From the sequence record PV935351.1: 39,767 nt of DNA, one strand, 5' to 3'. Positions within the stretch are counted from its first letter, which is position 1. Each line of letters begins with the position of its first letter. The translations under genes and the position numbers were made by a program. The DNA is from a phage. The notes beneath the pieces were generated by a model. That model was not told the DNA's origin, made no database searches, and saw only the letters and a program-made list of their open reading frames with translations. Of the stretch, positions 5,866-8,460 are shown piece by piece.

Positions 5866-6117
5866 ATGAGTAAACGTTGGCTATTCGACGCATCCACGAG
5901 CCAGTGGTCAGCGGTAGGCCGGACTCACCGCGCGATGAGTGAGGCAGGACTTGATGTCCTAATGGATTACTCGCCGTTCCCCGGAAAAATTCTGGTCAGA
6001 GTAATTGAAGCAGATGGTGGGAGGCTTCTGGTCTCCAGAGAATTTACCGAAGATGAAATCTTTAACTGTGAGCAATGGTGCTTACAACAATTGAACGCTT
6101 ATAGGAGCTGGAAATAA
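5866..6117 (+). CDS. 1.2: gp1.2-like protein (T7 gp1.2 inhibits host dGTPase)
   Basis: 83 aa, same size and position as T7 gp1.2, ends ...NAYRSWK (T7 ends ...DWK). Confidence 0.7.
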   Translation: MSKRWLFDASTSQWSAVGRTHRAMSEAGLDVLMDYSPFPGKILVRVIEADGGRLLVSREFTEDEIFNCEQWCLQQLNAYRSWK

Positions 6118-7169
6118 TGACAACGACTATCAAAACTAACCCGCACCGCGCTGTAGATTACTCTGAGTCTGGCGTTAAGAAGGCACTGGAAGCAGCCGGG
6201 TCGCTTGAAGCTGAAGTGAAGTACGATGGCGTCCGGTTGAATCTTCCGGTCTTCCCTACTGGTGAGACCCAATGGTTGAGCCGTGAGTCTAAACCTCTCC
6301 CAGCCCTTAGCTGGTTGAACACTTCCGGTCAGGACATAGGAGCTACCAAAGCGAGCGACTGGCGGTGGTTCCTGAAGCAAGCTGGCTATGAAGGGACTGG
6401 TCTGATGATTGATGGCGAGGTCATGGTGAAAGGGGTTGACTTCAACACGTCTTCGGGCCTCATCCGCACGAAGTATGTCAAGTCTAAAAACTACGACTTC
6501 CACGATGGCGATTGGGACCTCAAGTCCAAGACTACTCAGTTCCGGCTGGACCGAGACCATATCAAGGTGGTCGTCTACGGTGTAGTGGACCTTAACGTCA
6601 TCCTTGACCCGAAAGCCGAAGGTCCTATCCATAGCGTCACACGCCTGAAGGCCGAAGCTATCGTCCCTCTCCTCCAGAAATACTTCCCGGAAATCGACTG
6701 GGTTCTGTCTGAGTCACACACGGTCTATGACCTTGAGTCGCTCAGCTCCCTGTACGAAGAGAAGCGGCTGGAAGGACATGAGGGTCTGGTAGTCAAGGAC
6801 CCGCTTGGTAAATACAAGCGTGGCAAGAAGTCAGGCATGTGGAAAATGAAGCCTGAGGAGACCATCGACGGGACCGTGTGTGGCCTAGTGTGGGGGACTC
6901 CGGGCAAGGCTAACGAAGGTAAGGTGATTGGCTTTGAGGTGCTGCTTGAGGATGGCATGGTGGTTAACGCTTGTGGCCTGACTGAAGAACAGAAGGATGA
7001 GTTTACGGAAGCCTGTAACACTGATACATATATCCTCGGTGAAATCAATCCATACGAAGGCTGGCAGTGTGAAGTCCTTTTCATGGAGAGGTTCCCTGAT
7101 GGCTCACTCCGTCACCCTAGCTTCAAGTGCTGGCGCGGGACGGAAGACAACCCGACCGTTAAGAGTTAA
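6117..7169 (+). CDS. 1.3: ATP-dependent DNA ligase
   Basis: 350 aa; adenylation motif I KYDGVR at residues 35-40; T7 gene 1.3 position. Confidence 0.95.
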   Translation: MTTTIKTNPHRAVDYSESGVKKALEAAGSLEAEVKYDGVRLNLPVFPTGETQWLSRESKPLPALSWLNTSGQDIGATKASDWRWFLKQAGYEGTGLMIDGEVMVKGVDFNTSSGLIRTKYVKSKNYDFHDGDWDLKSKTTQFRLDRDHIKVVVYGVVDLNVILDPKAEGPIHSVTRLKAEAIVPLLQKYFPEIDWVLSESHTVYDLESLSSLYEEKRLEGHEGLVVKDPLGKYKRGKKSGMWKMKPEETIDGTVCGLVWGTPGKANEGKVIGFEVLLEDGMVVNACGLTEEQKDEFTEACNTDTYILGEINPYEGWQCEVLFMERFPDGSLRHPSFKCWRGTEDNPTVKS

Positions 7170-7178
7170 CTAAACGTC

Positions 7179-7212
7179 AACCCAGTGGTCTCCGGACTGC
7201 TGGGTTTCTTTG
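7179..7212 (+). terminator. intrinsic terminator after ligase (TE-like early terminator)
   Basis: CCCAGTGG / CTGCTGGG stem (two G-U pairs) with an 8-nt loop, followed by TTTCTTTG. Confidence 0.65.
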
Positions 7213-7231
7213 CGTCTAGACCGTAGATAGA

Positions 7232-7254
7232 CCTAAACTATCACTATAGGACAA
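7232..7254 (+). promoter_or_regulatory. phage RNAP promoter
   Basis: CCTAAACTATCACTATAGGAC, +1 G at 7249. Confidence 0.8.
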
Positions 7255-7281
7255 CCATAACTTCGACCTAAGGAGGCCGAC

Positions 7282-7542
7282 ATGTTTAAGAACTTAATGT
7301 TCAACCGTTATACCAGTACCTTCCACCTGTCCAACAACCCGTTCGCTTGCATTAAGCGCAACGAGAAGCTGGACTACTTCGGGAAGGTCGTTAAGCTGTC
7401 ACCTACAGTCTACGCTCTGATTACTCAGGGTAAAGCTGAAGAGGCTCGCCAAAAACGTGAGACCAACGTACCTGTAGTCTACACCAAGTGGCCTCGCGTT
7501 CGTCTGTTTATTGAGTTCGTGAAGGAGGTGATCAATGGTTAA
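7282..7542 (+). CDS. hypothetical protein (gene 1.6 position)
   Basis: 86 aa; AAGGAGG RBS. Confidence 0.65.
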   Translation: MFKNLMFNRYTSTFHLSNNPFACIKRNEKLDYFGKVVKLSPTVYALITQGKAEEARQKRETNVPVVYTKWPRVRLFIEFVKEVING

Positions 7543-7975
7543 GGTGGGGGATACAGTTAAATATGTTGGACCAATTGGAGCCCACATGGGACGCTCCTGT
7601 GGCAAGGTGATAATGGTTAAGAATGAGCATGTGGCTGTTGTTAAGTGGCCCCATTCATCTGAACCACTCACTCACTCCATTAGTTCCTTAAGTATTACCA
7701 AGCAGGCGCAGTCCGAGCCGATAACCATAGGTCAGGAAGATAGCGTCCGTAAGCCATCTCACTATCAGGTCTTTGACGGTGTGGAATCCATTGAGATTAT
7801 CGCTCGGTCAATGACTGTCAGCGAGTTCCGTGGCTTCTGCATGGGTAACGTCCTTAAGTATCGACTCCGGGCTGGTAAGAAGTCCGAGCTGGCTACTATG
7901 GAGAAGGACCTAAACAAAGCAGCCTTCTACCAGGAGCTGTTCGACCTGCATAAAGGTAAGTGTTATGACGTCTAG
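7535..7975 (+). CDS. 1.7: gp1.7-like protein (nucleotide kinase family, C-terminal homology only)
   Basis: 146 aa; the C-terminal 80 aa (KPSHYQVFDGVESIEIIARSMTV...LKYRLRAGKKSELA...KCY) match recalled T7 gp1.7; the N-terminal 65 aa differ and lack the Cys-rich motifs. Confidence 0.75.
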   Translation: MVKVGDTVKYVGPIGAHMGRSCGKVIMVKNEHVAVVKWPHSSEPLTHSISSLSITKQAQSEPITIGQEDSVRKPSHYQVFDGVESIEIIARSMTVSEFRGFCMGNVLKYRLRAGKKSELATMEKDLNKAAFYQELFDLHKGKCYDV

Positions 7976-8387
7976 TGATTGCATTGACCATGACTACAAC
8001 TGCAAGAGCTACGCAAATGTGTATTCCAAAGCTCATGGTAGAAACTTTGGTCTTCACCGAATAGTTCTAGCGGAGAAGTTAGGAGTCGATGTGGCTGAAA
8101 TGAAGGGAGTAGCGATGCACTCTTGTGACAATAAGAGATGTGTCAATCCTGAACACTTACAGTTAGGGACCCAGAGTCAGAACGTACTGGATGCACACTC
8201 AAGAGGACTGGTAAACGTGGTGTCTGGAGAAAAGCACCCAATGATCAAGCTCACAGACGAGCAGATTGCATATGTTCTGGGTAGTACGCTAGGCGCGAGA
8301 GCGATTGGCAGAGAGCTGGGAGTTTCACATTCGTTAATAAGCAGGTTGAGAAATGGAAAAGCAAGAGCTTCCCAGCGAGTGGGCTGA
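7965..8387 (+). CDS. HNH homing endonuclease
   Basis: 140 aa; HNH core HSCDNKRCVNPEHLQLGTQSQN; C-terminal HTH-like segment; AT-richer with AGA/AGG codons. Confidence 0.8.
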   Translation: MTSSDCIDHDYNCKSYANVYSKAHGRNFGLHRIVLAEKLGVDVAEMKGVAMHSCDNKRCVNPEHLQLGTQSQNVLDAHSRGLVNVVSGEKHPMIKLTDEQIAYVLGSTLGARAIGRELGVSHSLISRLRNGKARASQRVG

Positions 8388-8460
8388 GAGAAAATTTGAG
8401 GAGACAGGTAACGTCGATTACCTTCATCTCTACAACCAATGGAAGGAGCGTGGTCTATGA
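8353..8460 (+). CDS. hypothetical small ORF (gene 1.8 position)
   Basis: 35 aa, overlaps the HNH gene end and the gene 2 start; no clear RBS. Confidence 0.25.

Follow-up and report, generated by a model that had tools for sequence, protein, structure and literature searches.

Gene 1.7 of a T7-like Kayfunavirus joins a conserved DUF3310 domain to a predicted SH3/KOW-like barrel that appears to be an exchangeable N-terminal module

The gp1.7-family gene of the T7-like phage analysed here (genus Kayfunavirus; record PV935351.1, a stretch of 39,767 nucleotides hereafter called the window) encodes a protein of 146 residues in which a conserved C-terminal DUF3310 domain follows a small N-terminal domain, predicted to be a five-strand β-barrel, that replaces the cysteine-rich N-terminal region of T7 gp1.7. 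The protein is probably a member of the gp1.7-type dGMP/dTMP kinase family, for which we infer kinase activity, with an exchangeable and fast-evolving accessory barrel. The gene, its parts and its immediate upstream context are as follows.

7236–7251, + strand: AACTATCACTATAGGA, core of a promoter for the phage RNA polymerase, preceding genes 1.6 and 1.7
7282–7542, + strand: gene 1.6 homologue, 86 aa (phrog_1777, E 2e-33), in the same position as T7 gene 1.6
7522–7529, + strand: ribosome-binding site AAGGAGGT, ending 5 nt before the gene 1.7 ATG
7535–7975, + strand: gp1.7-family gene, 146 aa (ATG at 7535, TAG at 7973–7975)
7535–7708, + strand: SH3/KOW-like five-strand β-barrel as predicted by AlphaFold2 (pLDDT 87–90), residues 1–58
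7538–7735, + strand: putative exchangeable cassette, codons 2–67, with no nucleotide homology to Salmonella phage ST63 or phage 101118UKE1 (UKE1) and with flanks of 83–93% identity
7709–7738, + strand: variable linker, residues 59–68, differing in length and sequence among relatives
7739–7966, + strand: conserved C-terminal gp1.7/DUF3310 domain, residues 69–144, consisting of the DSVRKPSHYQVFDG segment followed by three helices

The 4-kb neighbourhood of the gene shares 90–96% nucleotide identity with Escherichia phages HC12, phiHAO2-2, vB_EcoP_F and others, and the order of open reading frames and sites, read against T7 and Kayfunavirus annotations, matches that of T7 (ligase, terminator, promoter, 1.6, 1.7, 1.8, 2, 2.5). 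As in T7, the gene lies in the slot between gene 1.6 and genes 1.8/2. It is preceded by the DNA ligase gene, by a hairpin resembling a terminator and by a phage promoter, and translational coupling links its start to the stop codon of the gene 1.6 homologue, which overlaps its ATG. The hairpin, at approximately 7183–7213 after the ligase gene, corresponds in position to the T7 TE terminator. The promoter core occurs 12 times in the window, always on the + strand (at 2515, 5594, 7236, 8615, 11003, 17214, 20035, 21022, 25430, 32706, 33927 and 38967), against 0.23 copies expected by chance at ≤3 mismatches.

BLASTP comparison with T7 gp1.7 (196 aa, L001:1144-1731) aligned residues 69–144 with T7 residues 120–195 only, without gaps and with 53/76 identical positions (70%, E 4e-40), so that the original prediction, which had placed the T7 match at residues 66–146, was right to within three residues. 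Its further statements that the N-terminal part is unrelated to T7 and lacks the T7 cysteine-rich motifs were borne out as well: residues 1–68 gave no BLASTP alignment, and the N-terminal part contains a single cysteine (C22), not conserved among relatives, against seven in T7. The two proteins therefore differ in length (146 versus 196 aa) and in what precedes the shared 76 residues, which in T7 is a region of 119 residues with cysteines at C21, C24, C35, C67, C71, C76 and C79, arranged in CxxC-type and C-x3-C-x4-C-x2-C patterns, and in the window protein a 58-residue barrel with a 10-residue linker. Pfam assigned residues 71–133 to DUF3310 (PF11753) with a score of 76.4 bits (cutoff 24) over profile positions 1–59 of 60, and found no other domain in the 146-aa protein at E ≤0.1.

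The C-terminal domain is predicted by AlphaFold2 to form three helices (residues 83–91, 95–115 and 119–142; pLDDT ~90). The preceding DSVRKPSHYQVFDG segment (residues 69–82, positions 7739–7780) is among the most conserved segments of the family, T7 included, and is predicted to be disordered in the monomer model, with pLDDT <50; it may be a substrate-binding or oligomer-interface stretch that becomes ordered only in a complex. When modelled alone (pLDDT 71.5), the domain had no fold match in the PDB, the best hits being generic helical hairpins (E 1.2), and a PDB profile search found no solved-structure relative of it. A HisE/MazG-like hit reached only E 4.9, and matches in BFVD to the N-terminal domain of a dATP/dGTP diphosphohydrolase and to an Nmad-type protein (E ~4e-4) were set aside as too poor, with rmsd values of 14–18 Å. 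To our knowledge, gp1.7 has neither a solved structure nor recognisable kinase motifs.

For the N-terminal part, AlphaFold2, run on an input alignment of 41 sequences, predicted a compact barrel with strands at residues 7–10, 23–29, 33–37, 45–48 and 52–56, followed by an unstructured stretch at residues 60–83 (pLDDT <50) that includes the DSVRKPSHYQVFDG segment. Foldseek searches of the PDB with this barrel retrieved the KOW domains of Spt5/NusG and kin17, NdhS and PWWP domains with rmsd values of 1.1–1.9 Å over 51–62 columns at a probability of 1.00; the E-values were marginal (4e-3 to 5e-2) because the domain is small. Nine residues (V8, Y10, G12, G19, G23, V25, W38, P39 and H47) are invariant in 35 diverse sequences, and the pattern GD-V-Y-GP...G...GKV..V looks like a KOW motif when the sequence is read by eye. 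Profile searches of the PDB with two family alignments gave nothing significant (best E 0.12), with a weak alignment to NusG over KVGDMVKIISGPFEDFAGV at E 0.72, and in Pfam, PDB profile and phmmer searches no KOW or SH3 family reached significance by sequence. The module is thus SH3/KOW-like by its predicted fold and is not assigned to the KOW family, and the likeness of the model to NusG/Spt5 and ribosomal-protein KOW domains, kin17, NdhS and PWWP domains is one of fold rather than of membership. A phmmer search with residues 1–62 against 1.84 billion representative sequences retrieved only the gp1.7-slot proteins P0121 and P0049, together with repetitive junk (P0122), and hence no barrel outside the gp1.7 slot. 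In Escherichia phage PSK1 (L023, gene 401-835), residues 13–15 (GPV) are deleted from the most variable loop of the barrel, which evidently accommodates a change of length there.

Comparison of closely related genomes at the DNA level located the edges of the N-terminal module. Relative to Salmonella phage ST63, which carries a different N-terminal type, homology extends from the ligase gene to the ATG (6114–7537, 83%), is absent at 7538–7735 and returns at 7736–7967 (93%), giving breakpoints at 7537/7538 and 7735/7736; relative to UKE1, homology resumes at 7739. In the comparison with HC12, which has the same N-terminal type, homology is unbroken over 6004–7981. The ribosome-binding site AAGGAGGT, invariant in the alignment, and the ATG on one side, and the junction GAYGRYGTNCGYAAGCC (coding for DDGVRKP, in the protein DDGVRKPSHY) on the other, are conserved in the window, HC12, ST63, UKE1 and T7, and a cassette lying between two such anchors could be exchanged by homologous recombination. 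These comparisons support separate inheritance of the first ~66 codons as a module. Base composition adds nothing to this picture as a sign of foreign origin: the N-terminal part, which had been described as AT-richer, has a GC content of 47.8% (7535–7735) against 49.6% for the remainder of the gene (7736–7975) and 49.9% over the entire window. A GC content no higher than that of the N-terminal part occurs in 28% of the 201-nt windows, so the contrast is insignificant.

The barrel-plus-DUF3310 architecture is widespread. The protein matches PHROG 4943 from end to end (E 3.9e-52; residues 1–146 on profile positions 1–165 of 166), while phrog_2585, the T7-type family, matches residues 60–145 only, and the window gene is therefore an ordinary member of an already catalogued gp1.7 subfamily. 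A tblastn search with residues 1–68 alone retrieved 43 phage records, all of them ~40-kb genomes, at 39–91% identity, and the barrel N-terminus is found in ~83 of the best-matching 120 protein clusters (clustered at 90% identity), which cover 99–100% of the query at 53–98% identity. Other members of PHROG 4943 from Kayfunavirus (HC12 URY99448.1, GA2A ALP47782.1 and Kc166A QVV96855.1), annotated in their records as 'nucleotide kinase' or 'hypothetical protein', have the same domain order and length and 65–98% full-length identity, and the differences of the window protein from them are allelic only (loop residues I14 G15 A16 H17 M18 and H40 S41, and the KCYDV tail). No description of the barrel-type N-terminal variant was found in the literature searched. 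The suggestion that the N-terminal domain had been replaced consequently survives in one part: the ST63 breakpoints and the variety of N-termini described below argue for a separate module, but the number and full-length coverage of these relatives argue against an unusual chimera, and alignment to other family members over the full length shows the N-terminus to be a common variant that is not peculiar to this phage.

Sorting the best 120 homologues by what precedes the KPSHY segment gave the following classes of N-terminus.

SH3/KOW-like barrel, the type found in the window
Long T7-like
Short C..CxC (MxKHKEWCRSVLSFGSCDCGA)
CxxC..CxC (MAHYCTECQEDHTNCTCH)
Helical-plus-C4 (LLALNVNVRDEASCG..C.G.SC.QCP)
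Tandem two-module hybrids, for example P0082, P0108 and P0014

Members of every class have a 72-residue core, from KPSHY to KCY, that is 100% identical to that of the window protein, so at least five unrelated N-termini occur on one identical core, and the T7-type cysteine-rich N-terminus consequently does not define the family. Some natural homologues of 104–116 aa have only ~30 N-terminal residues. Taken together, the identical core on varied N-termini and these short homologues favour the C-terminal domain as the seat of the core function, and residues 69–144 most likely carry the function of the family.

Among the hybrids, P0082 has the barrel, then a Cys motif and then a T7-like DUF3310 domain; P0108 has the short C..CxC motif followed by the helical C4 module, with the GTxSEDDGV junction duplicated; and P0014 combines the barrel with a T7-like proline/acidic linker. 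All three look like footprints of recombination at the junction. A further protein, P0121, from a metagenomic T7-like phage (L005:6001-6507, L006:1534-2040), has a barrel 53% identical to that of the window joined to another C-terminal half, which matches phrog_35442, has no Pfam DUF3310 match and is similar to the C-terminal portion of a PHROG of polynucleotide kinases. Its gene lies between gene 1.6 and gene 2, as does the window gene, and this architecture indicates that both halves of gene 1.7 are exchangeable. Another homologue, P0086, starts at MTEREQEVIIKL (MTEREQE), which we take to correspond to the internal Met-42 start from which, we assume, the shorter form of T7 gp1.7 is made; this start suggests that T7-type N-termini can, in nature, do without their first Cys cluster.

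The two halves of the protein also evolve at very different rates. Codon alignment of 22 barrel-type genes (the window and 21 phage records), with changes counted by parsimony on neighbour-joining trees, gave the following values.

16 closest genomes, barrel (codons 2–58): 11 synonymous and 32 nonsynonymous changes, dN/dS 0.93
16 closest genomes, C-terminal domain (codons 69–143): 55 synonymous and 7 nonsynonymous changes, dN/dS 0.04
18 genomes, barrel: 16.5 synonymous and 62.5 nonsynonymous changes, dN/dS 1.19
18 genomes, C-terminal domain: 66 synonymous and 11 nonsynonymous changes, dN/dS 0.05
All 22 genes, barrel: 100.3 synonymous and 196.7 nonsynonymous changes, dN/dS 0.62
All 22 genes, C-terminal domain: 121 synonymous and 23 nonsynonymous changes, dN/dS 0.05

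The contrast between barrel and C-terminal domain is strong (Fisher P 3e-11 with the 16-genome set, 7e-17 with the 18-genome set), and at the protein level the barrel evolves ~20 times faster than the C-terminal half. Per site, the barrel shows ~4-fold less synonymous change (11 changes at 41 sites) than the C-terminal domain (55 at 49) in the same genomes, so that barrel and C-terminal domain differ in their history even where the barrel is shared. Replacements in the barrel cluster at residues 9, 15, 18, 27, 40 and 45–46. The barrel dN/dS is not significantly above 1 (binomial P 0.36–0.66), and positive selection on the whole barrel is not significant; relaxed constraint would produce such a pattern, as would diversifying selection acting on the loops. 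A dN/dS of ~1 could also mean that the barrel is of little functional importance, despite its nine invariant core residues.

T7 gp1.7 phosphorylates dGMP and dTMP early in infection, according to Tran et al. (2008, 2012, 2014) as cited in PMC9339283. In the explanation that we favour, the C-terminal domain of the window protein would perform this nucleotide-kinase function, and a flexible linker would connect it to the small SH3/KOW-like barrel of 58 residues, which would occupy the place of the cysteine-rich, probably zinc-binding, motifs of T7 and many relatives. The ribosome-binding site with the ATG, and the DDGVRKPSHY-coding junction, conserved throughout the group, would serve as anchors at which co-infecting phages could swap the N-terminal cassette by homologous recombination. 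The barrel itself is probably an accessory module that binds a protein or nucleic-acid partner and would not be needed for catalysis.

Several other readings bear on the origin and purpose of the module. The barrel-plus-DUF3310 arrangement may be the older one in T7-like phages, with the cysteine-rich N-termini, including that of T7, as later replacements, a possibility to be taken seriously though we think it doubtful. In its favour, a KVGD-type segment precedes DUF3310 in distant Autographiviridae, namely gp30 of Drulisvirus KpV475 and the putative kinase of Erwinia phage Zoomie, where the order is Cys motif, barrel-like segment and DUF3310. It is also consistent with the phrog_1689 profile (Drulisvirus-type kinases), which aligns from residue 24, inside the barrel, and with full-length BFVD matches to the kinases of Pectobacterium PP81, Aeromonas PS and Klebsiella F19. 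In tblastn comparisons, the Drulisvirus-type and Zoomie proteins covered 98% of the query at 34–42% identity; they differ from the window protein in that their gene adjoins endonuclease VII and the RNA polymerase gene and, for Zoomie, in the extra Cys motif. However, hhalign of the N-terminal domain gave a probability of 20% over 9 columns against KpV475 and 67% over 27 columns against Zoomie, and SH3-like barrels often arise and are often recruited. The T7 cysteine-rich region is not necessarily the ancestral state that was replaced.

Another view of the T7 relationship, that the N-terminal regions of the window protein and of T7 are homologous but far diverged, with no exchange of a module, is highly improbable. 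The two regions do occupy the same position, and in each protein a linker of variable sequence leads on to the conserved KPSHY segment, but they share no sequence similarity, a five-strand barrel without conserved cysteines stands against the seven cysteines and their motifs in T7, the DNA breakpoints in close relatives are abrupt between flanks of 83–93% identity, and two types of module stand side by side in the hybrids P0082 and P0108. That the reading frame is an artefact, whether two genes fused through a mistake in sequencing or assembly or a misassigned start codon, is hardly conceivable given an uninterrupted frame of 144–152 aa with the same ribosome-binding site and ATG in 21 independently sequenced phage genomes and the ~83 protein clusters with barrel architecture.

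Conflict with the host offers a further explanation, compatible with the one we favour, in which the N-terminal module would serve as a surface in an arms race, being diversified and exchanged so that gp1.7 evades the host sensors that recognise it or is directed to different host factors. The Avs5 defence protein of E. fergusonii has been reported to be activated by T7 gp1.7 (PMC11897194), making an immune-evasion role of N-terminal diversity conceivable. The overall dN/dS of ~1 in a barrel with an invariant core, the position of the nonsynonymous changes in predicted loops or at strand edges, the three-residue loop deletion in PSK1 and the number of unrelated modules on one identical core all point the same way, but relaxed constraint explains a dN/dS not significantly above 1 equally well, and we consider an arms race rather unlikely as the explanation. 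The bolder form of this idea, which we hold to be about as unlikely, is that the gp1.7 N-terminus of Kayfunavirus-like phages is a hypervariable, cassette-exchanged recognition module, with the barrel as one allele among zinc-motif alleles, driven either by conflict with sensors such as Avs5 or by the docking of the kinase onto different host or phage partners. If it were true, loop residues 9, 14–18, 40–41 and 45–46 would form a contact surface under diversifying selection.

In itself the window gene matters little, but it illustrates frequent swapping at the N-terminal end of gp1.7. The value lies at the level of the family, in which a near-invariant DUF3310 core (dN/dS 0.04) occurs with five or more unrelated modules at its N-terminal side, the barrel among them at dN/dS ~1. 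Variants from nature with different N-terminal modules and otherwise no difference are ready-made reagents for finding the catalytic part of gp1.7, the part sensed by immune systems and the partners of the modules.

The 3′ end of the gene runs into an insertion, around which the following features lie.

7965–8387, + strand: HNH homing-endonuclease gene (Pfam HNH_3, phrog_59)
8353–8460, + strand: gene 1.8 homologue, re-started 3′ of the HNH insertion with a new N-terminus, as compared with UKE1

The gene 1.8 ATG overlaps the 3′ end of gene 1.7, and the insertion (399 nt, 7968–8366) directly follows this ATG, which the HNH reading frame uses. The KCYDV tail of the window protein, where UKE1 and HC12 have KCYAAE, goes with the insertion, which changes the final residues of the protein. 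Three relatives aligned over the whole region (L002-L004) lack the insertion, and in another 20 relatives the ~160 nt that follow gene 1.7 contained nothing matching it; at the same site it occurs in only two phage records, Salmonella CHRF_10022 and CHRF_20120, at 94.9% identity.
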